From the IMG/VR virus record IMGVR_UViG_3300028805_000048: a DNA stretch of 64,000 nt. One strand, 5' to 3'. This document shows, piece after piece, positions 1,998 through 52,828 of this stretch (positions are counted from its first letter, which is position 1; every line of letters starts with the position of its first letter). Under the pieces are notes generated by a model that was given only the letters and a program-made list of their open reading frames with translations, was not told the DNA's origin and did no database searches. The stretch comes from a virus. Its lineage: Duplodnaviria > Caudoviricetes. Made by a program: the position numbers and the translations under genes.

Positions 1998-2048
1998 TAA
2001 AAAAGAAGAGTAATCAGGAAAAGGAGGGAAACCTTAATTACTCTTCTT
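1998..2048 (-). terminator. Intrinsic terminator with anti-SD loop
   Basis: Stem AAGAAGAGTAAT (2003-2014)/ATTACTCTTCTT (2037-2048) followed by a U-run on the minus strand, downstream of 2088..3122. Confidence 0.7.
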
Positions 2049-2087
2049 ATCAATCTTTATAAATTGACAATAACTAGAACCAAGTTA

Positions 2088-3122
2088 CTATAATTCACCT
2101 CTTTTTCTTAAAATTAACTCTTTATATGTCAAATCTTCTAATTTAACCTTTTTTAAAGGCTTACCAGTTTTTATTTTTTTAATTTCTTGAGATTGTTTTG
2201 CTATTAAAGAAGATGATAGACCATATCTTTGTTTATATGTAGGTGATAAACTTTTAATAAACTGTAATATTTTTGGACTTACTAAACCAGCTCTATATAA
2301 AAATATTTTTCCAAGTAGTAATGTTTTTTTATCAAAACCAATAGGATCTTGCTTTTCATAAAACTTTTTTATATTATCATATAACTTTACACCATCAGGA
2401 TAATTTTTTGCAATAAGCAAAGCTTTATTTAATATATTATTTATTTCAGTTTGACTTTCTATATAATCTGGAGTATGGTTATTATCAGGAACAACATCAC
2501 CTAAACATTTATCACCTTTTCCATCTTCTAATTTTGAATCTAGAGAAAGTTTAAAAATTGAAGAATTTTCATCTTGCGTTGCTAAAAATGCCTTATGCTT
2601 TCTATCACCAGAAATCGATAATCTGATAATATACAAAAACTCTTTATATAACATTGGATTATATTCAACAGTAGATGCTTTTTTTAACGTTTCTGGAAAA
2701 AACCAACGAGTACGATAAAAATTACAAATTTTTACATATTTTAAATAAAATTCTGCAGCTTGATCTTCATAATTACCGTTAGAATTAGCTAATTTATATC
2801 CATTATATTCTATATATCCTTTTAAATATGAAATTAATGACTTTACACATCTGTCAAATCTTTCAGGATCAGAATTCATAATTGGTTGATGATTTATCAA
2901 ATAATGTGTAACTTCTTCAACTGTCTTAAATTTTTTAAGTTTTTCAATTACTTCTAACAATTCTTCATGTGTTAAACACGTATAAATTAATAAATCTTCA
3001 TCGTTTTTACAAGCGCTTAAAAAGGCTTGAATATCTGTATAACCAGATTCAACAAATTTCTTAAAATTTTGTTTTCTATTAGTTCTTTTTAAAATTTTAG
3101 CTTTTTTAATACCACCAATCAT
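2088..3122 (-). CDS. Divergent phage sigma-factor-like protein
   Basis: SLDSKLEDGKGDKCLGDVVPD resembles sigma70 region 3.2 (SLExPIGDDEDSxLGDFIED); basic, helical; located in the gp46/gp47 neighbourhood as gp55 is in T4. Confidence 0.45.
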   Translation of the reverse strand: MIGGIKKAKILKRTNRKQNFKKFVESGYTDIQAFLSACKNDEDLLIYTCLTHEELLEVIEKLKKFKTVEEVTHYLINHQPIMNSDPERFDRCVKSLISYLKGYIEYNGYKLANSNGNYEDQAAEFYLKYVKICNFYRTRWFFPETLKKASTVEYNPMLYKEFLYIIRLSISGDRKHKAFLATQDENSSIFKLSLDSKLEDGKGDKCLGDVVPDNNHTPDYIESQTEINNILNKALLIAKNYPDGVKLYDNIKKFYEKQDPIGFDKKTLLLGKIFLYRAGLVSPKILQFIKSLSPTYKQRYGLSSSLIAKQSQEIKKIKTGKPLKKVKLEDLTYKELILRKRGEL

Positions 3123-3215
3123 ATATTTGCTTCCTTTTTAAAAAATTAATATATTTATATTAAGTCAAAACTAGTAAAAATTGTAAAATCATTAAAAAAT
3201 TAAATTTCCATATAG

Positions 3216-3662
3216 TTAATTAAAATCACCTAAATTTTTATTTGTCTGTCCACATATAAAATACAAATCACTCATATATAAAGACCAAGCATAAACAAGA
3301 TTATGTAATTCTATAAGACCTTCTAAAACATTACTATCTTCAGAATAATAAGTAATCACATTTTCTGAAATCTTTTCACCACATCCTTTTGCTTTTTTGA
3401 TAGCACTTCTAACTTGTTCATTTCGCTTTTTGTCAATCAATGCTTGTATTTTCTTTTCATACAATTGTATTTGTGAACGAAAATAAGCTAAATTAATAAG
3501 ACTCATATGACGTTTATCTGTTGACAAATTAGCAAATTTTTGTATATTTTGCATAAAATTAATAAAACTAACAACATCTTTATCTTCTTTGAAAATAAGA
3601 TTAAGTTGATCTTTAATAGATTCATAATCAAGTGCCTCTACTTTTTCAATATCAAATTCCAT
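3216..3662 (-). CDS. UvsY-like recombination mediator (putative)
   Basis: 148 aa all-helical protein with EKISENVITYYSED segment; size and position next to SSB and Mre11/Rad50. Confidence 0.4.
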   Translation of the reverse strand: MEFDIEKVEALDYESIKDQLNLIFKEDKDVVSFINFMQNIQKFANLSTDKRHMSLINLAYFRSQIQLYEKKIQALIDKKRNEQVRSAIKKAKGCGEKISENVITYYSEDSNVLEGLIELHNLVYAWSLYMSDLYFICGQTNKNLGDFN

Positions 3663-4027
3663 CTTTTTACTCCTTTATATCTGAATTGTTTTCCGTATTT
3701 TCCATATCCACCAGTGAGATAATTATTTTTATAATTGAATTCTTGATCTTTAATGACTTCAAATTCTATATCTGGATTTACTATGTAACAATCACCACAT
3801 CCATGAGATATAAAATCTAAATGAATATCAAAATATTTATCCATTATTTCAAACGCTTTATCAAAAAATCTCCTTGGATCATCTGAATCATATGAAGAAC
3901 TTTGACCAAAATTTTTACCGAAACATTCATCATCTTTTGGAAAATATTCACTTACAATTTCAGCTGCTTCTCTAGGAACACCATATAAGATAAGTAAAGT
4001 TATTTGATCTTCTGTTAATTGTATCAT
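3638..4027 (-). CDS. Hypothetical protein
   Basis: 129 aa ORF, GAGG RBS, tightly packed in the operon. Confidence 0.7.
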   Translation of the reverse strand: MIQLTEDQITLLILYGVPREAAEIVSEYFPKDDECFGKNFGQSSSYDSDDPRRFFDKAFEIMDKYFDIHLDFISHGCGDCYIVNPDIEFEVIKDQEFNYKNNYLTGGYGKYGKQFRYKGVKRWNLILKK

Positions 4028-4140
4028 TCATGTTTCCTCTTTTTTAAATAAATAATAATAGATAACACTAACACAAAAAAGAATATTATAACAAGAATAA
4101 AACCAAGAAATTTAAATATTCCATCTAATATACTTATCAA
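4024..4140 (-). CDS. Small single-pass membrane protein (38 aa; not in ORF track)
   Basis: TTG start; MISILDGIFKFLGFILVIIFFFVLVLSIIIYLKKRKHE*; fills the gap exactly and its TGA overlaps the next ATG (ATGA). Confidence 0.6.
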   Translation of the reverse strand: MISILDGIFKFLGFILVIIFFFVLVLSIIIYLKKRKHE

Positions 4141-4142
4141 AT

Positions 4143-4967
4143 TTAAAACCATAACTGTATCTCTTCATCGTGTTCATAGATATTTATTTCACAATCTGAT
4201 TCTTGTCTTAATAATTCTTCAAAGGCGTTTGTTAATTCTGTTTTTTTATTATTTGCATTCGCTAATAAAATTCTTTTTGGTTTCAATCTTAATATTTTCC
4301 CAACAACTAAAGCTACTTCCATAATATTATCAGCTTCAAAATCTTCCCAATAAAAACCAAAAACTTCACTACCAATACGTCCAATCAATTTGCCTTCATG
4401 ATCTTTATATCCAACAGAAATATAATGGTTTTCTCTAGGTGTTAACATAAAGTTTAGCCTATCTTTTCCAAAACCTACTTCATCATCACCTTTTTTATAC
4501 GATGCATATTCCAATAAATTTTCTAAAGACAAATACATACTATCCGCTATTCTTCTATTAACTCTTTCTAAGCCTTCTGTACTAGAATGATCATGATGTT
4601 CATTACATAAAGAAACTAAATTATATTCTTCATATAAAAGATCTTTACGTTTACTTCTGAGATGTATATGATGTACTTGAGTTGCTGGTTTACCACAAAC
4701 GACACATTTGTAATTATCACGTTCTAATACTTTATTACGAACTTCTTCCCACTTAGCTTTAGCTTTGTCATTTTGTTTTTTTAATGGCGTTTTAATTAAT
4801 TCTTTTCCATTATCTTTTAAACTCTTTGTCTTTTTTAATTCTATTCCTTTATTTTTTAAAAAATTAACTTTCTTTAAAGAAGAATTCACCTTTAAACCAT
4901 TTTTATTAGATTTCAAAGGTGTTCTTTTAAGTAATTTATTTCCTGTCTTTAAAGCAGTTTTTTTCAT
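4143..4967 (-). CDS. HNH endonuclease with basic N-terminal repeats and extra C-terminal domain
   Basis: VLERDNYKCVVCG...QVHHI...NLVSLCNEHH = HNH signature; N-terminal LK(K/R)TPLK-like repeats. Confidence 0.85.
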   Translation of the reverse strand: MKKTALKTGNKLLKRTPLKSNKNGLKVNSSLKKVNFLKNKGIELKKTKSLKDNGKELIKTPLKKQNDKAKAKWEEVRNKVLERDNYKCVVCGKPATQVHHIHLRSKRKDLLYEEYNLVSLCNEHHDHSSTEGLERVNRRIADSMYLSLENLLEYASYKKGDDEVGFGKDRLNFMLTPRENHYISVGYKDHEGKLIGRIGSEVFGFYWEDFEADNIMEVALVVGKILRLKPKRILLANANNKKTELTNAFEELLRQESDCEINIYEHDEEIQLWF

Positions 4968-4978
4968 ATAAACCTCTC

Positions 4979-5031
4979 AAGAGCGTGACAGGAAGGAACT
5001 TATCATGCAAACAAAAACCTATCACGCTCTT
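4979..5031 (-). promoter_or_regulatory. RNA hairpin between ssb and HNH genes
   Basis: AAGAGCGTGACAGG (4979-4992)/CCTATCACGCTCTT (5018-5031); the single mismatch becomes G-U on the minus strand; ends directly before the HNH RBS. Confidence 0.65.
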
Positions 5032-5047
5032 AACCAATGATCACTAA

Positions 5048-5920
5048 TTAAAAAGGAACGTCATCCCATCCTTCATTAGCAATCGTTTCAGCAGCAACAT
5101 TGTTTGTAGCAAAACTATTAGTAGTATCTGTAGTTTGTTCAGCCGATTTACTCATAGCATCACGGGCCGCTACATAATTTTTAATCATGTCTTCAGCAAT
5201 TTGATTTACTTCCATAAATTCTTGATCAGAAGGCATCTTCCACAAATCAGGAAGTGTAAGCTGCTCATTTTCTTCTTTAAGTTTTGCAATAACTTCAGGA
5301 GAAGGTCTAAATTCTTTAAAACTAAACTCACGTTCCCATTTACCTGTATCACCAGGACGTGAAAACTTAATTGGATTACTAGATTCAATAGTCGTAAAGT
5401 TAGGAATTTCATTACTAGCATACTTTTGAGCCATCCAAACAGTCATAAAAGAACCATTTTGCTGTAAAACAGAAATGTGTGCTTTATCCCAATCGTTTCT
5501 TTCATCAGACTGAAGAACAACAACCTTAGCATTTGATGAAAATCTAGGATCAAATACAGGATCTGGACCAAATTTACCTTGTGTACATAACTGATCCTCA
5601 GTGAAACCCATCTTCAACAATTTTCTCTTAGCTTCACAAATCGGACATTTAATGCCTTTACCTTTAAGATGCACCGTCTCTTCAGGACATACAAATCTCT
5701 TAAACTGACCGTTACCTAAATCCAGCCAGTGAGTCCCTACAATATGACAAAAAACATTATCTTCTCTTGTATTAGCTGGCATTACTTTAAAAATGATATT
5801 CTTTTTAAAACCATGTTTATAACGAACCCATTCTATATCTGGTAAAGAACCAGAAGAATTATCAGTAGTATCATTTTTGAGCATTTGTTTCATCCATTCT
5901 TCATTAAAAACTTTTTCCAT
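5048..5920 (-). CDS. Single-stranded DNA-binding protein, T4 gp32-like
   Basis: His/Cys zinc ligands (HW...FVCP...CPICE), acidic C-terminal tail ending WDDVPF, recombination-gene context. Confidence 0.8.
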   Translation of the reverse strand: MEKVFNEEWMKQMLKNDTTDNSSGSLPDIEWVRYKHGFKKNIIFKVMPANTREDNVFCHIVGTHWLDLGNGQFKRFVCPEETVHLKGKGIKCPICEAKRKLLKMGFTEDQLCTQGKFGPDPVFDPRFSSNAKVVVLQSDERNDWDKAHISVLQQNGSFMTVWMAQKYASNEIPNFTTIESSNPIKFSRPGDTGKWEREFSFKEFRPSPEVIAKLKEENEQLTLPDLWKMPSDQEFMEVNQIAEDMIKNYVAARDAMSKSAEQTTDTTNSFATNNVAAETIANEGWDDVPF

Positions 5921-5983
5921 GTTAAAATTCCTTTAAAAAAATAAACATTTTATCGAAAACAAGATTTTTTATATCTTGTGTAT

Positions 5984-6028
5984 TATAGAATACAAATAAT
6001 TATTAATTTCTAATCAAAAAAATTTCCA
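5984..6028 (-). promoter_or_regulatory. Putative bipartite promoter TGGAA-N33-TTCTATA (ssb)
   Basis: TTCCA at 6024-6028 and TAGAA at 5986-5990 on plus strand; same spacing recurs at other non-structural genes. Confidence 0.55.
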
Positions 6029-6031
6029 TTT

Positions 6032-7090
6032 CTAATTAACTTTATCCAATAATCTTTTACCTTCTGTTATTAAAGCTTCTTTCTGTTCATCTGTATTTTC
6101 AGATTTATTAACAAATTGTTTAATAACATCAAGATTATTAGTAGTGTTTGATAAATCAGTTTCAATATTTTTAGATATAGAAATTCTATTTATGTCAACG
6201 TGTATATTTTTACCTTTCATTCTATCTATCTTAGCTTTAATTTCATCAGTTAATAGAATGTCTGTTGTAACATTAACATCAATATAATTATTATCATCAA
6301 TCTTCAAAATTTCTTCAATATTATCATCATTAAAACACAACCAATCTGGACATTCAAAACTACGTCTTTCTATTTTATCCATTTTTGTATCATAAATAAG
6401 AATATTTCGACGTGATATTCCTTTATCTTTAAAAGATAACCGTTGTGTAGAACCAGCTATTTGTATTTTATGTCCATAACTTCCACCAGAATGATAATGC
6501 CCTTGTAATGTCATTTTGAATTGATTTAATAAATCTAAAGGAACACCTTTTTGAGTAACTATACCATTACCAAGATTAATTCCACCTAATTCAAGATGTG
6601 AAAAGATAATTTTATTTTGTTTATCTTTTATATTTTCAAGAAATCTTATAGCTTCATCGTCATTAAGACAATAAGGCATATATACACATTCATAATGCAT
6701 ATCTTCACACAAATACTCTATTTCTTCTGGTTTAACATGAAGTTTAATATTAGGTAGATATTTTAATGCTTCTAACTTGTGTATTTGAAGATTGTTATCA
6801 ACTATATCATGATTTCCAAGAATAATGTCAAGAGATATTTTGGCATCGTTAAACTTTTTAAAAAAATCTAACACAGCTTTTAAAGTTTGGGCAGATATAT
6901 TATCGCCAACCGGGCCCCAAATATCACCAAGACAAACTAACTTATCGATATGTTCTTCTTGATATAGTCTTATTAAAGTATCAGCACAAGACAAATGCTC
7001 TAATTCACGAATTGTAAAACCAGAATCAGTAATATGTGAAAATCGATGTGTATGATGAAAATGTATATCACCAAAAGCCATTATTCTCAT
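6032..7090 (-). CDS. Mre11/SbcD-like recombination nuclease (T4 gp47-like)
   Basis: Phosphoesterase motifs GDIH, LGD, GNHD, SH, GHYH; adjacent to Rad50-like gene. Confidence 0.92.
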   Translation of the reverse strand: MRIMAFGDIHFHHTHRFSHITDSGFTIRELEHLSCADTLIRLYQEEHIDKLVCLGDIWGPVGDNISAQTLKAVLDFFKKFNDAKISLDIILGNHDIVDNNLQIHKLEALKYLPNIKLHVKPEEIEYLCEDMHYECVYMPYCLNDDEAIRFLENIKDKQNKIIFSHLELGGINLGNGIVTQKGVPLDLLNQFKMTLQGHYHSGGSYGHKIQIAGSTQRLSFKDKGISRRNILIYDTKMDKIERRSFECPDWLCFNDDNIEEILKIDDNNYIDVNVTTDILLTDEIKAKIDRMKGKNIHVDINRISISKNIETDLSNTTNNLDVIKQFVNKSENTDEQKEALITEGKRLLDKVN

Positions 7091-7091
7091 G

Positions 7092-8957
7092 TTACTTCTC
7101 CTCTATAGTCGTTACACCAAGTGATTTAGTGCATATGATTTTGTTTTGTATACTTTCTTTTACAGCTGGATGATTAGTAATCCAATATACAGATTCAGAT
7201 GTATCACTCTTATCTTCAATGATATTGATAAGTTGTTGTACACCGACAGGATCTAATTCAGATTCTATTTCATCTAACCATAACATATTAAAACTTACTT
7301 GTGATGTTGCTTGAATTAAATCATAAAGACCTAATTGAATAGCGATATTAAGTCGCTTTTTTTCACCACCAGATAAGCTTGTTACTTTTTTCTGAATACC
7401 ATTACTATTTATCAAGATATTGATGTCTGCACCATCCAAACGTAATTCTACATCTGTATTGCTGAAAAATTCGTGGATGTATTTTTGCATACAACTGTTT
7501 AAATATGCTATATCTTGTTTCAATAAATACGGTCTCAGTTCACCTTTTGATCCAAGTAACTTGTAAAAATAATCAGATAACTGCCTTTTGTTTTCAAGCG
7601 ATTTAAGTTGTCGAGCTACTTCGATTTCACCAGTGTCAAGATCAGCTATTTCTTTTTTATAAATAGACATGTCTTGAACCAACTTATCTACCTGGGAAGA
7701 GTGGGACTTCTTTTCAAGTTCCAGCCGAGCTAACTCTTGCGTATTTGCCAGCACTTTACTCTTTAGACTGTTTATCAATGAGTTATTTTCAGTCAATTTA
7801 GTTTTTAATTCTTTTAAAGAACTTTCACTAGCTTGTAATTGACTATTTACTTGTGCCCATTCTTGTCTTTTCTTTAAAAGATCATTATTCAAACCTTTTA
7901 TTTTTTCATCAACAAGAATCATGTCCTTATTAAGTTGATCACGATGGTTTGATTTTTCAGATTTTTCTTGTTCTGTTCTATCTAATAAATGACCACAAGT
8001 AGGACATCTATCGTTTTTAAACCAAGCTTCGATAAGATCAATATCCTTGACTTTCTCTTTCCGTTCGTATTCCGCACTCTGAAGAGTTAGTTTAATATTG
8101 TTAGCCTCATCTACTATCTCATTAAGTCTTTTTTGTAAAGAATTATTTGATGTTTCTTCTAAAGTTTTTGAAAAATTGGTACCGTTTTCTTCATTAACTT
8201 TAATTTCATTGTTACAATTGCTTATTTCGTTTTGTAACGCATCAATTTTAGCATTTATTTTTGCTTCATCGAAAGATTCAACAAGTACTCTATAGTTTTC
8301 CCCCGTAGTATCTAACATCTTTTGATAAGTTGTTTTACTACCATTCATGTTACTTAATTTTAAATTAAGTTCCTGTATTTCCTTGTTGTAAATTTTAATG
8401 TCTTTATTAGCTTCATCACGAACTTTATCCCAAACAGAATAATCACGTATACTTTCTAAAGTTTGTACACGTTGCTGAGGAGTAAGCTCAGAAAAAGCAG
8501 ACTTAATATCATGAGTCATCATAATTGTACTATGGAGCAACTCAAAAGGTATCTTGAATAATTGATTTATACGATTTTGTGTATCAGCAATTTTATGACA
8601 CGTTAAATCTTGTCCACCAATTTCAAGAAAAAGATTATTGCCAAACTCAGAATCTTTTCTAGTACGTGTTATCTTTATATTTCCTTGATCAGAATCAATA
8701 TAAAGAATTACACGACAATTTTTACCTGTTTTGGCATTAACAATATCATCTGCAAGAACTTCATTTGTTAAGGCATTACCAGTTAAACACCAATAAATAC
8801 TTGATAACAAAGAACTTTTTCCAGAACCATTGAAGCTTCCTTTTTCATCATTGTTAATTCCTTCAACAGAATATAAACCTTGTTTAATAGAAAACACAAT
8901 TTTAGATTGTATACTTCTAAAATTTTCAATTTCTATTTGGCGTATATTAAATTGCAT
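7092..8957 (-). CDS. Rad50/SbcC-like SMC ATPase (T4 gp46-like)
   Basis: IENFRS, Walker A NGSGKSS, coiled coil with CPTC zinc hook, LSGGE signature, Walker B LWLDE, H-loop. Confidence 0.95.
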   Translation of the reverse strand: MQFNIRQIEIENFRSIQSKIVFSIKQGLYSVEGINNDEKGSFNGSGKSSLLSSIYWCLTGNALTNEVLADDIVNAKTGKNCRVILYIDSDQGNIKITRTRKDSEFGNNLFLEIGGQDLTCHKIADTQNRINQLFKIPFELLHSTIMMTHDIKSAFSELTPQQRVQTLESIRDYSVWDKVRDEANKDIKIYNKEIQELNLKLSNMNGSKTTYQKMLDTTGENYRVLVESFDEAKINAKIDALQNEISNCNNEIKVNEENGTNFSKTLEETSNNSLQKRLNEIVDEANNIKLTLQSAEYERKEKVKDIDLIEAWFKNDRCPTCGHLLDRTEQEKSEKSNHRDQLNKDMILVDEKIKGLNNDLLKKRQEWAQVNSQLQASESSLKELKTKLTENNSLINSLKSKVLANTQELARLELEKKSHSSQVDKLVQDMSIYKKEIADLDTGEIEVARQLKSLENKRQLSDYFYKLLGSKGELRPYLLKQDIAYLNSCMQKYIHEFFSNTDVELRLDGADINILINSNGIQKKVTSLSGGEKKRLNIAIQLGLYDLIQATSQVSFNMLWLDEIESELDPVGVQQLINIIEDKSDTSESVYWITNHPAVKESIQNKIICTKSLGVTTIEEK

Positions 8958-8989
8958 AAAAAAGACTCCTATATTCAGTAATCACCATA

Positions 8990-9034
8990 TATAGAAGTCC
9001 AATAATGATATATTTCTACGTAATTAAATTTCCA
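8990..9034 (-). promoter_or_regulatory. Putative bipartite promoter TGGAA-N33-TTCTATA (gp46/47)
   Basis: TTCCA 9030-9034 and TAGAA 8992-8996 on plus strand. Confidence 0.55.
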
Positions 9035-9040
9035 AATAGT

Positions 9041-9346
9041 TTAAAAAATTCTTTTAAAAAATGCTTTTAATACATTGAAAATATTACCAAAAAACGATTT
9101 TTTATAAGAAACGCTTAAAAATTCTTCTTCTTTAAAAACGTTATTCACAATTGTCCATTTTTTATTAGCAGAAGATTGAAATTCTCTACCTTCATCTTCA
9201 GCAAATTCATAAATATCAAATTCATAATCATTAAATAATTCTTTAAATTTCTTATTTTTCTTAAGAATATCACGAACTGTCATAATAAAAGTTGTCTTTC
9301 CGACAGCCATTTTACCCTTAACGAAAATATTAATTTTCTTTGTCAT
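9041..9346 (-). CDS. Small protein with P-loop-like motif
   Basis: IFVKGKMAVGKTT near N-terminus; only 101 aa. Confidence 0.55.
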   Translation of the reverse strand: MTKKINIFVKGKMAVGKTTFIMTVRDILKKNKKFKELFNDYEFDIYEFAEDEGREFQSSANKKWTIVNNVFKEEEFLSVSYKKSFFGNIFNVLKAFFKRIF

Positions 9347-9618
9347 TAATTTCTACTCCTTAATTTAAGTTCTGTACATTTATTATTTAATATATCCAAT
9401 AAAGATACAAAAATTTCATCTTGATATTTTTTTAAACAATTTTCACATAAACAAAAAGGTGAATTTTCTATAAAAGAATCTACAAACACAGATTCTAAAC
9501 CAGCTAAAAAAGCTTTATGTAAGAAATTCATAGATCTTGAAGTAACTTGATTTGGCATTTCTTCACCACAAATATTACAACATACTTTATCTACTTCAAT
9601 CACTTTTTTGCAAATCAT
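9346..9618 (-). CDS. Small zinc-finger protein
   Basis: CNIC...CENC pairs; translationally coupled to neighbours. Confidence 0.6.
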   Translation of the reverse strand: MICKKVIEVDKVCCNICGEEMPNQVTSRSMNFLHKAFLAGLESVFVDSFIENSPFCLCENCLKKYQDEIFVSLLDILNNKCTELKLRSRN

Positions 9619-10172
9619 AATTCACCTTTATCAACTTTATCATAAAGTTCATAAGCATTATCAATCAATTTATCAAAGCTAAGAACTCTTTTATCTGGAT
9701 TCTGTTTAAATTTTTTATATTCTTCAACACAATCATTTTCTATAGCCGTCATAAACAATTTATTAAAAATTTGCATATTTTTTTCAGCTTCTTCTTTTTT
9801 ATCAAAAACAACACATATTGTATTTTTGTTTTTATATTTATTACGACTGTGATCTTCATCAACAACAGAAGTATACCAACACCATTGTTCTTTTAATTCT
9901 TTAACAATATCATTTGTAGACATTCCATCAAATGATTTGTTTTTCCAATTTACACGAATTGAACATACTCCATTTGGTTTTATTAAAACATCACGTGTTG
10001 ATGGAATGTAAGGTAAACCATTTAAACAATACATTGAATTATGTATCTTTTTTATCGTTTTATTTATCTTAATTTTCTCTTTTTTAACTAAATCTTTTAA
10101 TTCATTTACTTTTTTATGTAATTTTTTATCTTTTGTAGTTTTTTCATCTAAAACTAATGCCATCAAATTCAT
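9615..10172 (-). CDS. Hypothetical protein
   Basis: 185 aa ORF with GAGGA RBS. Confidence 0.75.
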   Translation of the reverse strand: MNLMALVLDEKTTKDKKLHKKVNELKDLVKKEKIKINKTIKKIHNSMYCLNGLPYIPSTRDVLIKPNGVCSIRVNWKNKSFDGMSTNDIVKELKEQWCWYTSVVDEDHSRNKYKNKNTICVVFDKKEEAEKNMQIFNKLFMTAIENDCVEEYKKFKQNPDKRVLSFDKLIDNAYELYDKVDKGEL

Positions 10173-10189
10173 TTTTAGCTCTTCCTCTT

Positions 10190-11092: not shown

Positions 11093-11615
11093 ATTTTGGA
11101 AAATCTTTTATAAATTCATCATAAACATTTGATAAATCTAATAATTCATCTGTTTTTTCTAATAAATCATTATGTTTTGTTAAAATATTTAGATAATGTT
11201 CATGTATTAAATCGCGATATTTTATTATTGATAAAGATTGTTCTTTGTATTTTTTTATTTTTGAATCTTTCCAGCTATAAGCATCTAAAAAAGAATCAAA
11301 ATTTAAAGATTTTACAATATTATCTAATTCATTATGTAAATAATCTAAACAATTTTTAACAAATTGTGTTTTGTTATCATATTTGATAATTTCATTTGGA
11401 TCTTTTGGACATCTTTGCTTTAAATAAAATTTTCCATCATATCCTTTAACGATTTCTTCATTTGTACAATATAAATCTTTATTATACCAGTCTTTGTATC
11501 TGAAATTATTGACATAAAATTTAGCTGTCTCAAAATCAGCTGTCCATTTAATACTTCCGTCTTCTAAATAGACATAAAATTTATTTGAATATTTTGGATC
11601 ACCATTAATTTTCAT
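11076..11615 (-). CDS. Tail-fibre assembly-like protein
   Basis: LDNIVKSLNFDSFLDAYSWKDS..KYKEQSLSIIKYRD resembles phage fibre-assembly chaperones; AGGAG RBS and GTTCTAA motif upstream. Confidence 0.5.
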   Translation of the reverse strand: MKINGDPKYSNKFYVYLEDGSIKWTADFETAKFYVNNFRYKDWYNKDLYCTNEEIVKGYDGKFYLKQRCPKDPNEIIKYDNKTQFVKNCLDYLHNELDNIVKSLNFDSFLDAYSWKDSKIKKYKEQSLSIIKYRDLIHEHYLNILTKHNDLLEKTDELLDLSNVYDEFIKDFPKYEGTN

Positions 11616-11714: not shown

Positions 11715-11780
11715 TTAATAAATTCCCTGCTTTCGCTCGTCGGCTTTGTCGCCGCCGTCGCTCAAGCTGGAATTTATTAA
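11715..11780. repeat. Inverted repeat enclosing a GC-rich island (origin-like element)
   Basis: TTAATAAATTCC (11715-11726)/GGAATTTATTAA (11769-11780) flank CTGCTTTCGCTCGTCGGCTTTGTCGCCGCCGTCGCTCAAGCT within an almost pure A/T intergenic region. Confidence 0.7.
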
Positions 11781-11848
11781 TATATTTTTTATTTTATTAA
11801 TAAATTTAAATTATTAATAAAAATTTCCATTTAATTTAAAGATATAAA

Positions 11849-11892
11849 TGGAAATTTTATAAATTTATTTTTAATATATTTTAGATTCTATA
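11849..11892 (+). promoter_or_regulatory. Putative bipartite promoter TGGAA-N32-TTCTATA
   Basis: TGGAA 11849-11853, TTCTATA 11886-11892, upstream of 11923. Confidence 0.5.
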
Positions 11893-11922
11893 AATAAAAT
11901 TATATAAGAAAGGATTTTTAAA

Positions 11923-19285: not shown

Positions 19286-19286
19286 T

Positions 19287-19331
19287 TGGAACATTTTTTG
19301 AATTTTTTATAGTAATATTATGGATTCTATA
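19287..19331 (+). promoter_or_regulatory. Putative bipartite promoter TGGAA-N33-TTCTATA (grx-groES-groEL unit)
   Basis: TGGAA 19287-19291, TTCTATA 19325-19331. Confidence 0.55.
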
Positions 19332-19371
19332 AATATAATTTGTAAAATCGTTAGATTTTTGTGAGGTAATT

Positions 19372-21792: not shown

Positions 21793-21835
21793 AGATAAAT
21801 ATTATTCTGTTGACATGATTGAAAATCTCCCTAAT

Positions 21836-21867
21836 GTCCTTGATTGAAATATATCAAGGACTTTTTT
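21836..21867 (+). terminator. Intrinsic terminator after groEL
   Basis: GTCCTTGAT/ATCAAGGAC perfect 9-bp stem plus T6. Confidence 0.85.
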
Positions 21868-21919
21868 ATAATCTATGGAAGAATTTATGACGTGGTTTGA
21901 AAAACAATAGTCACATTTT

Positions 21920-45500: not shown

Positions 45501-45880
45501 TAAATACAGCTGATGTAAATTATTATGATGAACCGATAATTAAAAAATTCAATCATTTCACAACATATCTTGAATTTATACAACCAGAAATGCATAATGT
45601 TAATATTCATGCACAAGTAGCAATTAAGAAAAATTCACAAATAGCTTCTGGAATAGTTCTTCAAAATGTTCGTACAAACATTCAAAAATTATTTGAAATA
45701 ACTCCAGATTATATGGGTAAAGATCTTAAATTGTCTGATATTTATAAAGCTATTACAGGTACAGAATATGTATCTTGGTGTAAAGTTTTAAAACCATTAG
45801 ATAATCAAAATATAAACGCAAATGAAATTATGATTTGTCAAGATATTATTTTAGATGAAGTACAGGATATATATGAGTAA
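42533..45880 (+). CDS. Baseplate wedge protein, gp6-like with large insertion
   Basis: LVQGE, YIKVGNG.LG..P, GGFSKQSVETLR, RAIRRQDY, VWGE; gp6 C-terminal region resumes after about 600 extra residues. Confidence 0.85.
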   Translation: MKLDNIIYDVDSLKVAIAEQWSADSEVFASIYPSDTATALINGMAAYGSMLQYTIVSCLANCYTSTAFSDAAVYQLADTLGNDLHGNVSSQVIVNIIKNNLKEENLTIPQYSTFVIGGKKFFNPYEIILPANVPFVHTITLVQGEIIEVNKTTSGIANEKFYFSSEFKASPHYIRVFINDEEWNVVESFLQYDKSYVLSPEDMNSVILKTDPDGRAYIKVGNGQLGTLPMSGSVIQIKYCSNDGKDGNIDEKGAEGVLESQLVYTDRYGNQQTLDVTVVTTTTAYGGFSKQSVETLRLTSPWVFASGHRAIRRQDYNALLQNQCGYITSQVWGEYEEANRIGAYDHLMMNMVYYTGIKNFRDYPYFKLDTITNPTAYTGALYSNSGFYGSYNLRLSNLVGSRNDIYVQDTGAQGWLFINDNDQDPRDSLLPDWIASENRYYRNIITFDPSDSQSGTSGGLNYKVNDELWINVTVPASGGTIPTTTIQTNCLVRVKEIDSNGKVLKIELLTKASSERYNIVETSTFSTTYYKGISQQGVGLVVKLSQEQYDDSNLITTNDFEYTEEELENPLINARSDKPNGEDTFYRSIFHPTLQYPVQIRINYNESKTITGIKFKATNPRNGTFIGTIAMFGSNGIDNGQGGTNPPSYVNVRNNSEDWTCIINRKELSTPYNSENDNDCWSNWIATSCFLNDQGETEKDANGDPKLKEYKYYVIEFYSTENNSEEDSKITFDSMKVLYSDNTSLIFYTENGEIRLNLPTAGDPGPGTEDGYIENSLITSKNYPLYNYGITLAGITKANGYEDNDILVYKSTNGSIFRIKVVSIANEEYLMSVNGSEVLVGNDNVQMASNQPVSFGDNKIYTYTLDPITNQPIVGNGGSGYKVNDVVYIARTDPDQIARLGEKTDLSLRVAAVDSSGAVLALTWLNNELLDEELDKVINYSVSPTITDGEGVNLKLVVVSKPGTLGTQGTILIKSSYNIEVNANFKGDRINTADVNYYDEPIIKKFNHFTTYLEFIQPEMHNVNIHAQVAIKKNSQIASGIVLQNVRTNIQKLFEITPDYMGKDLKLSDIYKAITGTEYVSWCKVLKPLDNQNINANEIMICQDIILDEVQDIYE

Positions 45881-48701
45881 TACTGTTAATGATATAAATA
45901 AAATATATTGTGATAGTCCTATTTCTGTTAGACACATTAATATGACATCTTTGCTATTTGTCGATGATAAAGTTGTATCAAAATCTAGATATTCTGTTAT
46001 AGATAGTTATATAAATTTATTAGATGTTGCAGAAAAAGATATATGTCTTTATCAACATCGAGGATCTTCTAATTATTATGAATATCGCATGAATTTAAAA
46101 GAATTATCTACTATATCAGGTAGAGATATTTATGGAAATACTTTACAAAATATTACAAAAACAAATCATATATTGTTTATAAATGGATTAAAAATACAAC
46201 AATCTGCTTATACGATTGATACAGAAAATAACACAATAACATTAAATGTAATATTTCCTAATGAAGAAATATCAACAATCATAATTTATACTTCAGATAG
46301 TATGCAATATATGGGGAAAGTTAATGCTATCGATGAAGAAACTGGTGGATATAAAAGAGATTGGAATTTAGAAAAACATTCATTTAAATTAGATGATTAT
46401 ACATATCTTCGTTATATATTTTTTAAAAATGGTGAAGTTTTAACACGTGATTACATTCACAAAATAAGAGATGTCGTAACACTTAATACAGAATTAAATA
46501 TTCGCATAAATCCAGAAACTGGTGAAAAATATATGGTTGATGACATTGATTATTATATGTTACCAATTGATACAGAAAATGTAATATTCAATGCTGATCC
46601 TGGATATTTTTCATATGGTCCAAAGGATAATCTTGATTTACCTGTTCCAGAAGTTCATGATGCTGAAGTAACATTTCAATCAATTGTAAGATTAGCAATA
46701 GATGATGTTAGAAAAGGTTTCTTCATAAGAGAAGCCGATGGTGATGGTTGTGTTATGATTTCTGGTGAGAATTTTGAAACAAAAACAGCTTATTGTACAA
46801 CAATAAAGAAATTTTCTAAAGAATCATATTCTAAAAATGAATATTTTGTTCAAGTTCCTAATGCTAAATCTATTTTGAAATATATATCAGAATATGATTT
46901 GAATAAAATGCTTATGCCTGAAATATTAGGCAGTTTTCAAAAATTATTACTTGATGAAACATATGATAGTGTTCAACGTTTAAAAAATTCAAGAAGTATA
47001 AATTATGTTGATTCTACTGAAATAAACAAGTTAATTAGATTTATGGGATTAGATATAAATCTTACAAATATAGATTTAGAAAAAAAGCACGCTTTATTAG
47101 AAGAATTAACAAACTTCTATAACATTGTTGGTACACGTGAATCATATAATTTTTATAATATCACAAACAATACTGGTAAAATAGTAAATATCGATCAATT
47201 ATTTACTCCAATTAAAGATTACACTGATACTGAAACATTGGATAGTGCTAGAAGGTATGTTGATTTTAGAACAGCAGAAGAATTAGGCGCAGTAACAAAA
47301 ACACGTTATGAATATCCTTTTTATGATTTAGGTCAAGTAGATATTTTAGCAAATCCAGATGATTCATTTACAAATCAACCAAGAGATGAAGGAATATTAA
47401 ATTACACTGGATACAAAATAATAGGCGAACCATTAATCGATTCTAGAGATAGAATAAGTGGTTTTACAAAAAATGATTATATAGAATTAAATGATATTTT
47501 TGATCCTAGTGAAAAAAACTTTAAAGTTATGATTAAGTTTAAAACTCCAAATAATGTTGCTACTGGATCAGATCAAGCTTTGTTTGAAGCTAATGGAAAT
47601 ATAAATTATTGTGGATTAATCGTTTATATAAGAAGTAATGGACACTTAGCATTTAATTTTCCAAAAGAAGACATGTCAGGTTGGTATGGTGGAGTAACTT
47701 CAAGTTTCATTCTGAAACCAAATACTTGGTATTGGGTAATTGTAGAAAGAATAGATAAAAAAATAACAAGTTATTATTCTATTAACGGAAGAGATTATAT
47801 AATTATAGGTTCAAAAACTTTAACAGACAACTTTGTTATGCCTACGTTCAATTATACACGTATAGGCGTTAGAAAAAATACAATAACAGATAAAATTTCT
47901 AATATTTATAATGGTATAATAGATTTAAACGAATATTATATTTACATCGATGATTCTTTGTATTGGACAGCGATACCAACAGGATTACCTGCTACATTAT
48001 CTCATACAAGTAATGTTGTTGTTAACTTGATTAAGAAAAAACTTATTGTTTATAAATTAAGTAGTAGTAATGAACAATACGTTGGATATGTATGTGAAAA
48101 TGATAAAATATACAATGATAATAAAATAGAAATAGGTTATGTTACTGGTGAAAATCATGATATTCCACACATAGAAAACATGACTGAATATGAATTAATA
48201 GATATTGATCCTGGTGAAGAATTAAATGTAAATGAACTTTTATTAAATGTAAATGTCGAAAAATATACACCTGTAAACAGATATATAATTGAGCCAGTAG
48301 CTGGTCCTAATAAACCAACAATGGATTTTGGTTATATAAATGAAGAAGCAACAAGCTTTTATGATTTTGGTTATGTATCAGATACGATAAAAGGACAATG
48401 GATTTCATGGACAGAATGGGATAGACCTAAAAATTGGTATCCAACAAATCATGTTGATGTAGCCGTTCAAATTCCACCAACGATAGACTATAAGACATTT
48501 ATGACAGAGTTTAAAAATACTTTTTATGATATAGCTAGCGCAGTTCTATATATACATAGTATCATTGAAGTTTATACATTTGGTGATGAAAATCCATCTG
48601 GAGTAGGCGCTAATTTTGGTATATTAACTACACCAACTTACTATACGTATGAATGGGCATTCACAAATGATCCAAGAAGACAAGATTATCGATATGATTA
48701 A
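45873..48701 (+). CDS. Baseplate wedge protein, gp7-like, with LamG-like insert
   Basis: FYNIVGTRESY (gp7/P2 gpI KGT-type motif); LKPNTWYWVIVER...YSING LamG-like segment; AGGA RBS supports start 45873. Confidence 0.65.
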   Translation: MSNTVNDINKIYCDSPISVRHINMTSLLFVDDKVVSKSRYSVIDSYINLLDVAEKDICLYQHRGSSNYYEYRMNLKELSTISGRDIYGNTLQNITKTNHILFINGLKIQQSAYTIDTENNTITLNVIFPNEEISTIIIYTSDSMQYMGKVNAIDEETGGYKRDWNLEKHSFKLDDYTYLRYIFFKNGEVLTRDYIHKIRDVVTLNTELNIRINPETGEKYMVDDIDYYMLPIDTENVIFNADPGYFSYGPKDNLDLPVPEVHDAEVTFQSIVRLAIDDVRKGFFIREADGDGCVMISGENFETKTAYCTTIKKFSKESYSKNEYFVQVPNAKSILKYISEYDLNKMLMPEILGSFQKLLLDETYDSVQRLKNSRSINYVDSTEINKLIRFMGLDINLTNIDLEKKHALLEELTNFYNIVGTRESYNFYNITNNTGKIVNIDQLFTPIKDYTDTETLDSARRYVDFRTAEELGAVTKTRYEYPFYDLGQVDILANPDDSFTNQPRDEGILNYTGYKIIGEPLIDSRDRISGFTKNDYIELNDIFDPSEKNFKVMIKFKTPNNVATGSDQALFEANGNINYCGLIVYIRSNGHLAFNFPKEDMSGWYGGVTSSFILKPNTWYWVIVERIDKKITSYYSINGRDYIIIGSKTLTDNFVMPTFNYTRIGVRKNTITDKISNIYNGIIDLNEYYIYIDDSLYWTAIPTGLPATLSHTSNVVVNLIKKKLIVYKLSSSNEQYVGYVCENDKIYNDNKIEIGYVTGENHDIPHIENMTEYELIDIDPGEELNVNELLLNVNVEKYTPVNRYIIEPVAGPNKPTMDFGYINEEATSFYDFGYVSDTIKGQWISWTEWDRPKNWYPTNHVDVAVQIPPTIDYKTFMTEFKNTFYDIASAVLYIHSIIEVYTFGDENPSGVGANFGILTTPTYYTYEWAFTNDPRRQDYRYD

Positions 48702-48715
48702 TAGGATTTATATAA

Positions 48716-50992
48716 ATGATTGTAAGTAGAGATAAATTAATACAATATTCAATTCCAGAACAATTTTATTTTGCAAGACGTGTTGGTGAAGGTTCTCCAA
48801 TCAGTCGTGATGAATATTTTAATAACAATCCTATTCAATTAGTAAAATCGGCTTATTGTGCTATAGGTAATGATACTGATGGTTGGGAACTAGAAATGTA
48901 TAATGGTGTTAACTGGGTAGTAGTTACACCTGAAGAATCATATTCGTTAACAATAACAAATGATGGACTTGCCGCTTTAACTAATGTTAAACAAGGTACA
49001 ACTCAATTAAAATTCAGTGGTTTAAAAATAATTGATCAAACAATTCTTAATCCAGCAACACCTCTCATTCAATGGACAGATACAACATTTTTAGCTGCTG
49101 GTAATGTTGTGTTTTCTGTAGGAACAAGAGGAGCAGCTCATAGCAATCCTGAAGAATTAAAACATCTTTTAAGATGGCGTTTTAATTCTTCTTCTGGTGG
49201 TTTACAATATATATTAACGTTACCAGCTGATGGTCTAGGATCTACAGCTGATGATAGAAGTAGTACATGGAATATTGGTGCAATTGGTTTATATGTAAAA
49301 GATCCAGATGATCAAACTACCGATGTATTATTTGCTGTTGCAACATTACCAGAATTGGTAACAAAGCATGCATCTACTATAGAAATGATTGGTAATACAA
49401 TTAAATTGTATTTTAATACGATATTAACTAACTTAGGCGTTGTATCAAATTTAAATGTGTTAGCAGATAATGATGTTAGTTTACCTGAAGTACAAAATGA
49501 AACTTTATTAACTTATCCAATAGATGCTGAACAAGATCCAAACAACTGTTATTTAGTAAATAATTTATATGGAACAAATATTCCAGCTTTAGCAATTAAA
49601 AAAACAATTGATGCTTCTAGTGATTCTGAATGGATATACATTCAACCTAGTGATAATTTTACAATTTTACCAGCTGAAGCTTTTGATCAATCAGTAAACA
49701 ATTATGATTTTGTATATTGGGATGCAACTGCAGAAAAATATAAATTAGCTGAAGGTAAAACTAATTCTACAGAAAACAATGAAAAAATGCCTATAGGTAT
49801 ACGTGTTGGTAATTCAATTGTTTATACAGGTGTTGTCACAAACACGTCTACTTCATACGAATATTCAATTGATTTAATTTCAAGCGGTACAAATTATAGA
49901 GATAGTGATGAATTATTAATAGCTGTTAACGGTGCACTTACTTTTAAGGTAATAGTAAATAGTATTCAACCTGACGGTGGTATTAATGGATTTACATTAA
50001 TTGGTCCTACTGTAGGTGATTTAGAAATACCTGGTGGAGAAATCACTTTACCTGCTATATATGATCCAAGATCTCAATTGCCTAGAGATGGATATAACGC
50101 TAGATTTAAAGTAACTAGTACAAGAATTCCTAGTTCTCAATGGAATTTTCCAGCGTCGTGGTTAAATAAACCTTTATATTGTAGTTGGAATAATGATCCT
50201 GTGCATACAAGTAATCCACAGTTAGGTGGTGAAGGTAAACCAACAATTACTGAAACAGATAGTATGGTTGGATGGTGTATATCTTCAAATGCTATAAAAC
50301 TTGGCTTTGATGTAAGAAATGAAGCAACAACTACTAAATATGGTACAGTAAGGTATGCTACTAATGCTGAAGTTAAAGAAGTTTTAACTAATTCTCAAGC
50401 AAATTATACAACAGCAATTTGTCCTAAGACATTAAACGATAACTATCTTCAAATAAGTAAACCTTCTAATACGAATCAAAAAGGTAGTTCAATCAATAAA
50501 CCAATAGAAGTAAACAGCTTTGTTAAATTCAAACAAACTGTTCTTGGAAAAAATACTGCTAGTTATGGCACAACATATATGAATGATGCGAACATAGATT
50601 TCTACGGTTGTTCATATCGTGCTTGGTATGCTGACTTAGCTGAATTTTATGAAGCTGATAAATATTATGAAGCAGGTACACTAATTAGTATCGGTGGTGT
50701 TAAAGAAATAACCGTTGCTAAAAATGAATGTAATGGTATAATTTCTACAAATCCTGGCTTTGAATTAGGTAATAAACTTTCTGATATGCATCTTCCAGTT
50801 GCTTTGGTAGGACGTGTTCCAGTTTTATTTGATGGTAATTGTATGCCTAAATTTGGAGATAAGATATATTTGTCTAAAATTATTCCTGGACGTGCTTCAA
50901 CTGTTCCAAATGGTAATTGTTTAGGTAAAATTGTGGCTAAAAGTTTTGGTACTAATAAATTAATAGAATGTATTATAAGAATAGATTTTTAA
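48716..50992 (+). CDS. Baseplate-attached fibre protein with C-terminal intramolecular-chaperone-like domain
   Basis: ITNDGLAAL and IGAIGLY...VLFAV fibre-attachment motifs, ATTTKYGTVRYAT, C-terminal YADLAEFYEAD...GIISTNPG...PVALVGRVPV. Confidence 0.7.
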   Translation: MIVSRDKLIQYSIPEQFYFARRVGEGSPISRDEYFNNNPIQLVKSAYCAIGNDTDGWELEMYNGVNWVVVTPEESYSLTITNDGLAALTNVKQGTTQLKFSGLKIIDQTILNPATPLIQWTDTTFLAAGNVVFSVGTRGAAHSNPEELKHLLRWRFNSSSGGLQYILTLPADGLGSTADDRSSTWNIGAIGLYVKDPDDQTTDVLFAVATLPELVTKHASTIEMIGNTIKLYFNTILTNLGVVSNLNVLADNDVSLPEVQNETLLTYPIDAEQDPNNCYLVNNLYGTNIPALAIKKTIDASSDSEWIYIQPSDNFTILPAEAFDQSVNNYDFVYWDATAEKYKLAEGKTNSTENNEKMPIGIRVGNSIVYTGVVTNTSTSYEYSIDLISSGTNYRDSDELLIAVNGALTFKVIVNSIQPDGGINGFTLIGPTVGDLEIPGGEITLPAIYDPRSQLPRDGYNARFKVTSTRIPSSQWNFPASWLNKPLYCSWNNDPVHTSNPQLGGEGKPTITETDSMVGWCISSNAIKLGFDVRNEATTTKYGTVRYATNAEVKEVLTNSQANYTTAICPKTLNDNYLQISKPSNTNQKGSSINKPIEVNSFVKFKQTVLGKNTASYGTTYMNDANIDFYGCSYRAWYADLAEFYEADKYYEAGTLISIGGVKEITVAKNECNGIISTNPGFELGNKLSDMHLPVALVGRVPVLFDGNCMPKFGDKIYLSKIIPGRASTVPNGNCLGKIVAKSFGTNKLIECIIRIDF

Positions 50993-51005
50993 AGGATAAA
51001 CTATA

Positions 51006-52769
51006 ATGGCAAGTTATTCAGAAACAACAGCGATAAGAATTCGTCATGGAAATAAAAGCGAAAATGATAATTTTACAGGATTATCTGCTGAAGTTGTCGC
51101 TGATTTAGGCGAAGATAACACTGGTACTGATCAAAATACTACATTACGATTACATAATAGTATAAATCAAGGTGGTATTAAATTAGCTCGTGCTGATATG
51201 GCTAATGTCACAACTGAAACTTTAGCTAAAAATCGTCGTTTATTAGGTGATAAAAATCTTGCTTATGCTGATATGACTAACGTTAACACTGTTGATCTTG
51301 CTACAAAAGCTGATGAATTAGATGGACATGAAGGTAAAAATCTTGCATACGCTGATCTTAGTAATCTTAAAGATAATAAATTAGATCCAAATACACAAGA
51401 AGAAATCATAGATGATGTAGTAGAAGTATTAAATGATTATGGTTTAGCTACAAAAGTCGATTTGAATACAGAAATAACAGCTTTAGACAATAAAAAAGCA
51501 GAAAAAGATTTATCAAATGTTGATACAGCAGATCTTGCTAGTGGAGAAGGTGAACAAGGAAAGCATGCTGGTAAAAATCTTGCATATGCTGATATGAGTA
51601 ATGTAAGTACAGTCGATTTAGCTACATCAACAGGTCATGCTGGTACAAATTTAATGTATGTTTCTGCTTCTAATATTAATACAGCTGGTTGGAATAAATT
51701 AAGTACAAAATTACAAAATATAGACGATAGACAAAATGATATTAGCTCATCAGCACAAATAACTGATAGAACAAAAGCGTATCCGACAGTAAAAGCTGTT
51801 ACTGATTACGTAGATACAGCCGTTACACAAGAAGGTTTATTAAAGATAGACTTTAAAAATGCTAAAACTTGGGATCCTTTGGTAGATAGATCAAACATCG
51901 AATTTAGATTTTCTACAGATGTTGAAAATATAATTGCTGCTGGTACAGGTTTTACAACTATGATGACTTCTATATCTGGAACAAGTTATCAAGTACCTAC
52001 ATTGGCTCCAACAAATCTTACTGTTGGGAATACACCAATCAAATTAGCTGTTTATGAAATAAACGATGAACATAAACCAATCAGTTGGAGATTATATCCA
52101 GAATATGGTAAAACAAATATTTCAACTCAAACTATCAAATTCAAAACAAGTTTAGGTAAGACATTAGAAGGTACAATTAAAAGCATAGCACATCCAAGTG
52201 CATCTGGTGTATATCGTTATATCTTTACAATATCAGATAGAACAAAGATTCAAGAAAGTCCTGAATGGATAGGAACAAGAGTAGCAAATGATTTCGAATA
52301 CGTACCTTTATACGATTGTACAACAGCAATCAATGTAAATCAAAGTGTTTGTATTCAGATTAATAATGTTGATAGTAATGGTGCTATAACATCTTATTCA
52401 ATTGTTCCAAGCACATCAACCACAGCAATAGCTTCTAATAATCGTCCAGTATATCATCCAATATTAATTACAGAAGCAGTTCAAAGTGGTAACAACGGAA
52501 CAATTGCTATCTTTTCTGAAAATTGTATGCCAAACATTGGTGGTGCTGGTCTTTTAAAAGATGATTTCAGCAATTTGAGTGGTAACAGTGCTGTAGATAA
52601 AGCATCAGCTAAAGATGCTATTTGGAATATAAACAGAGAAAAACCAATGCCAGATATTTCTTTAACAACAATTGATGAATCAGAATATTATAGAATTTGT
52701 ACAATTGGACAAGTTTGGGATGCTCTACACGATTATGGTTCAACAAAAGTAACGATTAGAGATTGGTAA
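51006..52769 (+). CDS. Tail fibre protein
   Basis: N-terminal IRHG...FTG..AEV...TLRLH...GG..LA fibre head motif; repeated KNLAYAD(M/L)SNV units. Confidence 0.7.
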   Translation: MASYSETTAIRIRHGNKSENDNFTGLSAEVVADLGEDNTGTDQNTTLRLHNSINQGGIKLARADMANVTTETLAKNRRLLGDKNLAYADMTNVNTVDLATKADELDGHEGKNLAYADLSNLKDNKLDPNTQEEIIDDVVEVLNDYGLATKVDLNTEITALDNKKAEKDLSNVDTADLASGEGEQGKHAGKNLAYADMSNVSTVDLATSTGHAGTNLMYVSASNINTAGWNKLSTKLQNIDDRQNDISSSAQITDRTKAYPTVKAVTDYVDTAVTQEGLLKIDFKNAKTWDPLVDRSNIEFRFSTDVENIIAAGTGFTTMMTSISGTSYQVPTLAPTNLTVGNTPIKLAVYEINDEHKPISWRLYPEYGKTNISTQTIKFKTSLGKTLEGTIKSIAHPSASGVYRYIFTISDRTKIQESPEWIGTRVANDFEYVPLYDCTTAINVNQSVCIQINNVDSNGAITSYSIVPSTSTTAIASNNRPVYHPILITEAVQSGNNGTIAIFSENCMPNIGGAGLLKDDFSNLSGNSAVDKASAKDAIWNINREKPMPDISLTTIDESEYYRICTIGQVWDALHDYGSTKVTIRDW

Positions 52770-52828
52770 ATTTTTTTAGTCTAGAATAACTAATTTTAAA
52801 TTCATTGTTCTTCCTCATAAAAAAGTAA

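Follow-up and report, generated by a model that had tools for sequence, protein, structure and literature searches.

Why should four 3' regions of one phage genome carry the reverse complement of a translation start? The question is raised by a 64,000-nucleotide stretch of DNA from an uncultured large phage (IMG/VR record IMGVR_UViG_3300028805_000048; "the window" below means this whole stretch), in which a reading of the sequence alone had picked out four anti-Shine-Dalgarno (anti-SD)/anti-AUG sequences: site 1, directly after a gene that we call gene B; site 2, behind the gene for a putative single-stranded-DNA-binding protein (SSB); site 3, behind groEL; and site 4, beside a bidirectional terminator. 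That sequence-only reading took them for one recurrent system, either antisense RNAs derived from 3' untranslated regions (3'-UTRs) or translated antisense minigenes, with decayed gene starts as the dull alternative. All four sequences are where it had placed them. The best joint explanation, to which we give a probability of roughly 60%, is that the sites are a mixed set: a conserved single-copy small RNA (sRNA) at site 1, another conserved element, distinct from the first, at site 2, and the flanks of terminators at sites 3 and 4, the minigenes having arisen by chance.

Searches with the window DNA and with the gene B protein found no close relative among deposited, cultured or annotated phages. 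Related contigs of up to about 260 kb came from IMG/VR, ENA and Logan assemblies. The closest near-complete relative, a 227-kb contig (G001) whose GroEL and gene B are 83% and 80% identical to those of the window, was analyzed at its full length, with 107-125 of its intergenic/3' regions as the chance control; the intergenic share of the window is only about 2.1 kb, with 13 informative 3' regions.

A conserved candidate small RNA at site 1

Site 1 is best read as a stand-alone candidate sRNA of about 70 nucleotides (nt), made up of two hairpins and a U-tail, with a terminator shared with the upstream operon (Table 1). On the transcribed (minus) strand, the 15 bp of the hairpin 2 stem lead into UUUUUU (-24.9 kcal/mol, z -4.05). 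These are the stem-loop and U-run of an intrinsic terminator, and hairpin 2 is of this kind in all relatives. Because no other terminator lies between gene B (DHFR in relatives) and hairpin 2, this hairpin ends the upstream operon as well. The RNA, which had been proposed to derive from a 3'-UTR, appears to have a promoter of its own and not to be purely 3'-UTR-derived. No AUG occurs within it. Against Rfam 15, it gave no match at the gathering threshold in the window and only chance-level matches at E up to 10 in positions 1900-5100.

The apparent promoter is a copy of the hexamer GTTCTA, which behaves like a late-type phage promoter element. In the window, its density in intergenic DNA is 10.7 times that in coding DNA (6.6 times in G001); it is co-oriented with the next gene and usually lies 29-48 nt before the start codon (at most starts after gaps). 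The copy at site 1 is exceptional, with 162 nt to the next start and a strong terminator in between; in all 15 tabulated phage sequences a gap of exactly 6 nt separates it from the first G of hairpin 1. Most sequences have a second GTTCTA 50-100 nt beyond the terminator, ahead of the next gene. 

A search by the loop motif found the whole element in every related contig examined. It is present in 15 phage contigs and in two contigs from metagenome-assembled genomes (MAGs), always in one copy, and follows the gene B homologue, or DHFR where DHFR comes after gene B. Across the 15 phage sequences, which span 49-93% identity to the window in the neighboring gene B, the plan is shared: GTTCTA, the 6-nt gap, a 5' hairpin starting GUC, a short spacer, a second hairpin, and a U-run. 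A covariance model (R1) built from 11 sequences gave exactly one match per phage (50-88 bits), and neither the window nor G001 holds an R1 paralogue. A loose pattern scan of IMG/VR returned mostly chance matches, and a specific pattern retrieved only five already-known contigs.

Both hairpins carry compensatory changes. In hairpin 2, compensatory double changes affect 10 of the 15 pairs, and 89.7% of cells are paired (40-60% with the 3' partner slid); none of 500 shuffles reached these statistics, which refer to a model-guided alignment, since RNAalifold on the raw MAFFT alignment mispaired the GG with the loop CC. In hairpin 1, pairs 3-6 covary (AU/GC/CG/UA). The apical loop, 11-15 nt long across relatives, reads UUUCC(C)(C)UCCUUU in clade 1 and UAUUUUCCUCCUUUUUG in the distant clade; CCUCCUU is therefore invariant. 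This C/U-rich, SD-complementary heptamer is unpaired in the apical loop of the minimum-energy fold in 13 of the 15 sequences and partly paired in the other two (L086 and L087). The suggestion of an anti-SD sRNA is strongly supported at site 1, as far as a conserved structured RNA is concerned; it is possible at site 2.

Table 1. Positions of the four sites, their parts and adjoining features in the window
Feature	Position	Strand	Remark
Candidate small RNA (site 1), ~70 nt: 5' hairpin, terminator hairpin with anti-SD loop, U-tail	1997-2068	-	fold -22 kcal/mol; R1 84.6 bits
GTTCTA promoter-like motif plus 6-nt spacer	2069-2080	-	GTTCTA copy at 2075-2080
Hairpin 1, GUCAAUUU/AGAUUGAU	2049-2068	-	predicted in all 15 relatives; pairs 3-6 compensatory
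Hairpin 2, intrinsic terminator stem	2003-2048	-	covariation; U-run at 1997-2002
Apical loop UUUCCCUCCUUUU with CCUCCUU	2019-2031	-	13-nt loop; heptamer in all 15 phage sequences
Second GTTCTA promoter-like motif, for the next gene	1941-1952	-	34 nt ahead of next start
Gene B	2088-3122		site 1 element directly after gene
HNH-type nuclease gene downstream of site 2	4143-4967	-	PHROG HNH endonuclease families, E 1e-15; syntenic in relatives
Site 2 hairpin, 16-bp stem, 25-nt loop at 4993-5017	4977-5033	-	-27.3 kcal/mol, z -4.69
Putative gp32-like single-stranded-DNA-binding protein gene, end DDVPF	5048-5920	-	sub-threshold Pfam gp32 match, E 0.026
Site 3, CAU..CUCCCU between groEL stop and terminator	21810-21832	+	local fold not significant, z -1.57
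groEL terminator hairpin	21836-21861
Site 4, CAU..UUCCUC 5' of bidirectional terminator	52798-52816	+	C-rich hexamer kept in G001 only
Bidirectional terminator	52829-52860

A possible anti-SD action of the site 1 RNA

CCUCCUU is the core of the 3' tail of 16S rRNA, that is, the anti-SD. The exposed loop of the site 1 RNA would most likely pair with the SD sequences of mRNAs, with GGAGG-type SDs as the best partners, and so block 30S binding and translation. What leads us to this proposal is that the exposed anti-SD is the sole conserved sequence and that sRNAs with CU-rich loops, known from low-GC Gram-positive bacteria, provide the nearest precedents.

One of these, LhrC of Listeria, binds the SD region of lapB through CUCCC..UUUU motifs located in loop A, the linker and the terminator loop (PMC4132741), and the UCCC motif, known from S. 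aureus sRNAs such as RsaE and RNAIII, is described as characteristic of sRNAs that block initiation (PMC4132741, PMC2790875). Like LhrC, RsaE and RNAIII, the site 1 RNA would be a short two-hairpin RNA with an intrinsic terminator as its second hairpin (PMC4132741, PMC2790875), and it has the same arrangement of an unpaired C/U-rich, SD-complementary motif and then U's in an apical loop, including the terminator loop. It has no homology to these RNAs in sequence or structure (no Rfam match); unlike them, it is encoded by a lytic-type jumbo phage and not by a bacterium, and has a single seed, which is the universal anti-SD core and therefore potentially non-selective.

Other sRNAs share single traits with it. 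Those of the DapZ/MicL type derive from 3'-UTRs, have their own promoter and share the terminator of the mRNA. The site 1 terminator likewise also ends an operon, and the promoter-like motif just past the last stop could make a short RNA; unlike in DapZ/MicL, the putative promoter lies after the coding region, not inside it. The 6C sRNA of Mycobacterium has C-run hairpin loops and binds multiple mRNAs without a chaperone (PMC6486639), but these C-rich loops are two in number, the hosts are high in GC, and the family is unrelated. Among phage RNAs, c4 of P1 and P7 is also small and structured, with loops that pair around the ribosome-binding site (RBS) and block translation (PMC12197685); unlike the site 1 RNA, with its generic anti-SD, c4 arises by processing of a longer transcript and acts on one phage mRNA (ant) by gene-specific sequences. 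A 2025 review of phage sRNAs includes no jumbo phages and no anti-SD RNA, its sole RBS example being the gene-specific c4 (PMC12197685).

We rate the kind of mechanism, an SD-targeting sRNA with a C-rich loop, as already known; new are the RNA family itself, its origin in phages and the exact identity of its loop sequence with the anti-SD. To our knowledge, few regulatory RNAs are known from lytic phages. Here, a group of AT-rich, uncultured jumbo phages of ~150-260 kb keeps one small RNA whose sole invariant part is the mRNA-docking sequence of the ribosome. If the proposed SD pairing is true, the RNA would offer a simple model, open to testing, of how an RNA may control translation in infection, as well as a natural, ready-made anti-RBS module. 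The R1 model and the 17 sequences make the site 1 family searchable now.

Several points weigh against this account. The 5' end, the independent transcription and the abundance of the site 1 RNA are all matters that we infer. Duplex predictions found no mRNA of the window or G001 with complementarity to the loop beyond an ordinary SD match, and thus pointed to no specific target. The loop would also be able to pair with many RBSs of the phage itself (AAAAGGAG), which leaves selectivity unexplained. Nor does binning fix the host, because the RNA stands on contigs binned into two unrelated MAGs, a 52-kb contig in a Succinivibrionaceae bin (L219) and a 249-kb contig, probably a whole phage genome, in a Bacilli bin (L223). 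At site 2, the loop prefers neither the SSB start region nor the downstream start region.

The C-run of the site 1 loop varies in length, and no matching GGGG-extended SD was found in G001. At the gene starts of the window and G001, the usual SDs are AAGGA or AGGAG, and the full AAGGAGG is present at 0 gene starts of the window and at about 3 of roughly 300 in G001. Its near-absence from phage starts would fit a selective action of the site 1 RNA on stronger, perhaps host, RBSs, which is only a lead.

Phages use RNA mimics against RNase toxins, pseudo-ToxI being an example, and the site 1 RNA could by analogy be a decoy that mimics the 16S 3' tail and titrates a protein that recognizes or cleaves the anti-SD, such as a MazF-type toxin that cuts at UCCUU in an abortive-infection response, or another factor that binds the anti-SD. 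Such a role would account for an invariant part that is exactly the 16S core and not a generic C-run, and for the want of a specific mRNA target in the window and G001; mycobacterial MazF toxins do cut the anti-SD at UCCUU and inactivate ribosomes (PMC12274833, PMC5408214). We nevertheless regard the decoy as unlikely, given that it is an analogy alone, with no such toxin known for the host, that the ribosomal anti-SD is a single-stranded tail and not a hairpin loop, and that pairing of an anti-SD loop with SDs is simpler and has many precedents.

Both actions can be cast more broadly, in a tentative and somewhat doubtful proposal that late in infection the phage makes abundant copies of an anti-SD RNA as a global translation device, either sponge or decoy. 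As a sponge, it would occupy strong GGAGG-type RBSs and shut off host or early messages, while late messages with weaker SDs continue; as a decoy, it would protect ribosomes from host nucleases directed at the anti-SD. Either version would make it a generic rather than a gene-specific phage RNA weapon. We found no description of a comparable generic anti-SD phage RNA in the literature.

The hairpin behind the SSB gene

The gene before site 2 is read, weakly, as a gp32-like SSB gene; the C-terminal tip DD(I/V)PF is conserved in its homologues. Every relative has a hairpin directly after the SSB stop codon. Six phages (the window, G001/L026, L024, L023, L087 and L086) share one type, in which the stems of 11-16 bp are mutually unrelated in sequence and yet all perfect, as expected from compensatory change, and the loops align as a U-run, YAUG, 5-8 nt and GUU(U)CCUU. 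More distant relatives have a short intrinsic terminator in this position. L086 retains both hairpin and loop although a different endonuclease gene comes next, so that the element is to be assigned to the 3' end of SSB.

Site 2 comes down to a conserved hairpin, located at a 3' end or between cistrons, whose loop is under sequence selection. The hairpin would most likely mark or protect the 3' end of the SSB message, or set its stability, and limit read-through into the HNH gene; the conserved loop, with its U-run, YAUG and UUCCUU, probably serves for specific recognition. Neither an antisense minigene nor a sense upstream open reading frame (uORF) explains the loop, because the antisense ATG is kept in only 3 of the 6 relatives and the frame of the sense AUG, itself present in 6 of 6, is not conserved. 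A uORF beginning at that AUG was rejected as a candidate: every relative has such an ORF, but the frame shifts with respect to UCCUU, the peptides are unrelated and there is no SD.

The loop, with UUCCUU, a spacer, CAU and a U-run, also equals a generic start region in reverse complement, which invites the improbable reading that it acts in cis, pairing either with the SSB SD or, in a pseudoknot-type repression, with the HNH start region. For the former there is a precedent in the 3'-UTR of icaR of S. aureus, in which a C-rich anti-SD motif lies within a 3'-UTR structure, as at site 2 (PMC3868564). The icaR motif pairs specifically with its own 5' UTR; such a preference is missing at site 2, where the SSB start region ranks 2nd of 59 partners in the window but 45th of 299 in G001, and an icaR-type interaction was rejected on this ground. 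The downstream start does no better than background starts in 4 of the 6 phages (fractions 0.89, 0.69, 0.41 and 0.27), and the loop of L086 is kept in front of a different gene.

Further variation was seen around this position. In L086, an endonuclease-like gene (L086:1244-1819; YNTW..RC.., of NUMOD/AP2-like look) stands where the KKTPLK-repeat HNH gene is otherwise found, which suggests a nuclease gene replacement at the SSB-downstream position. In several distant relatives (L027, L028/L051, L029, L049, L052 and L053), the 9-14 nt that precede the ATG of the HNH-type gene lack an SD, and the sole SD-like sequence falls within the purine-rich arm of the terminator-like hairpin ahead of the gene or directly 5' of that arm. 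T4 genes 38 and 25, with their split RBS, offer a parallel, as would the sequestration of an SD by a terminator. In the SSB 5' UTR, a hairpin ATGACAG..CTGT is kept in relatives.

Recurrence against chance

In the window, the combination of antisense SD and ATG occurs 3 times in 1320 nt of 3'/intergenic sequence, compared with 0.28 expected from dinucleotide shuffles (P about 0.003), and 2 times versus 0.31 when only unidirectional regions are counted (P 0.03); the motif was defined post hoc and these counts are very small. Anti-SD pentamers are found in 4 of the 13 regions (2.9 expected, P 0.31), and a strict set of them 3 times (1.1 expected, P 0.07). The excess of the combination over shuffles was not seen in G001, where its count is at background (6 versus 4.6, P 0.31), as is that of anti-SD pentamers (31 of 125 regions versus 27.5, P 0.2). 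Among 42 large-loop intergenic hairpins of G001, an anti-SD 4-mer is present in 7 loops and an SD-like 4-mer in 4. With G001 at background, the hairpin-loop excess slight and the window motif post hoc, the recurrence of a system is not supported statistically.

The claim of one recurrent 3'-UTR system that displays anti-SD plus anti-AUG and acts through antisense RNAs is accordingly quite improbable and already largely refuted. It can point to the window excess, to two of the four sites being conserved hairpins with C/U-rich loops, and to two more UUCCUU hairpin loops in G001. Against it are the diverse architectures (site 1 a stand-alone sRNA, site 2 a hairpin between cistrons, sites 3 and 4 unstructured) and the lack of any repeated family, there being one R1 match per genome and a site 2 loop motif that is unique in each; sites 3 and 4 are, moreover, not conserved, and the 227-kb relative shows no enrichment. 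The two further intergenic hairpins of G001 lie at 56650-56977 and 57347-57451, and their loops, UAAUAUAUAUGUUCCUUGU and CUUUAUUUCCUUUCA, are of the UUCCUU type; the former is similar to the motif of the site 2 loop.

Sites 3 and 4 and the antisense minigenes

All four sequences had been described as hairpin-associated. Sites 1 and 2 do lie in apical loops, but sites 3 and 4 are unstructured and stand just 5' of terminators. Conservation divides them in the same way: it was found for sites 1 and 2, not for site 3, and at site 4 only for the C-rich motif in G001. The CAU..CUCC of site 3 is absent behind groEL in 6 relatives. For site 4, G001 keeps CTCCTT beside the homologous bidirectional terminator, without an antisense ATG at usable spacing; L216 does not have the motif, and L215 has it as one arm of a stem. 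The terminators of these AT-rich phages, with an A-tract, GG..CC stem ends and a U-tract, give AAGG and CCUU words by construction, and many look-alikes of this sort have their mundane origin in that layout. What flanks the terminators at sites 3 and 4 is ordinary sequence.

Two observations were made near the groEL terminator. In 4 of the 6 relatives (L001-L004), a sense SD-like purine stretch lies between the groEL stop and the terminator, for example AAGGAGGUGA in G001, which is the opposite polarity to site 3 of the window. Beyond the terminator, at 21879-21914, the window has a sense mini-ORF (GGAAG, 5 nt, ATG, MTWFEKQ*) that is probably due to chance.

Chance or decay of former gene starts fits sites 3 and 4, but not sites 1 and 2. 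That it should explain all four, with site 1 merely an operon terminator whose loop content is incidental, is very unlikely. The hairpin does end the upstream operon, and the AT-rich layout does produce AAGG and CCUU words. A terminator, however, requires only a stem and a U-run, and at site 1 it is the loop that stays constant: the stems vary freely, while the 11-15-nt loop keeps CCUCCUU even where the flanking protein is only 49% identical, and a promoter-like motif and a 5' hairpin are conserved upstream at fixed spacing.

The three minigenes (MQTKTYHALNQ, MSTE and MNLKLVILD) can be read on the opposite strand with good SD-spacer-ATG geometry, as had been claimed, but their translation can be all but dismissed, because neither ATGs nor peptides are conserved: site 1 has no start codon, the site 2 ATG, in the half of the relatives that keep it, opens unrelated peptides of 11 and 12 amino acids or just a start-stop, site 3 lies in an unconserved region, the site 4 ATG is missing from G001, the only close relative (the ATG thus being lost in half or more of the relatives), all neighboring genes run in the opposite direction, and no promoter motif faces these ORFs. 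Antisense SD+ATG look-alikes near terminators in AT-rich genomes are thus mostly by-products of composition and terminator layout, not minigenes.

Gene content and other promoter-like motifs

The window DNA has about 29% G+C, and its genes include a T4-like portal, groEL, an HNH-type nuclease and long structural genes. As to whether gene B is a sigma-like factor, profile searches of Pfam and PDB gave nothing usable. In most relatives, a DHFR gene directly follows gene B, with stop and start overlapping; the window, L085, L087 and L214 have no DHFR there, and the small RNA then adjoins gene B.

A second, bipartite promoter-like class consists of TGGAA(A/C)(A/T)T, about 30-33 nt, and (A/C)TTCTAT(A/T)(A/T)ATA. 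It was found in the window at 5950-6031, 8958-9040, 11840-11922 and 19286-19371, and also upstream of the SSB genes in L023-L031. This class precedes replication and chaperone genes and differs from the AAAGTTCTAA class before structural genes. Finally, the window's only GC-rich non-coding stretch, at 11720-11790, is a long imperfect hairpin with a flanking inverted repeat (TAATAAATTCC/GGAATTTATTA), located in a 307-nt divergent intergenic region.

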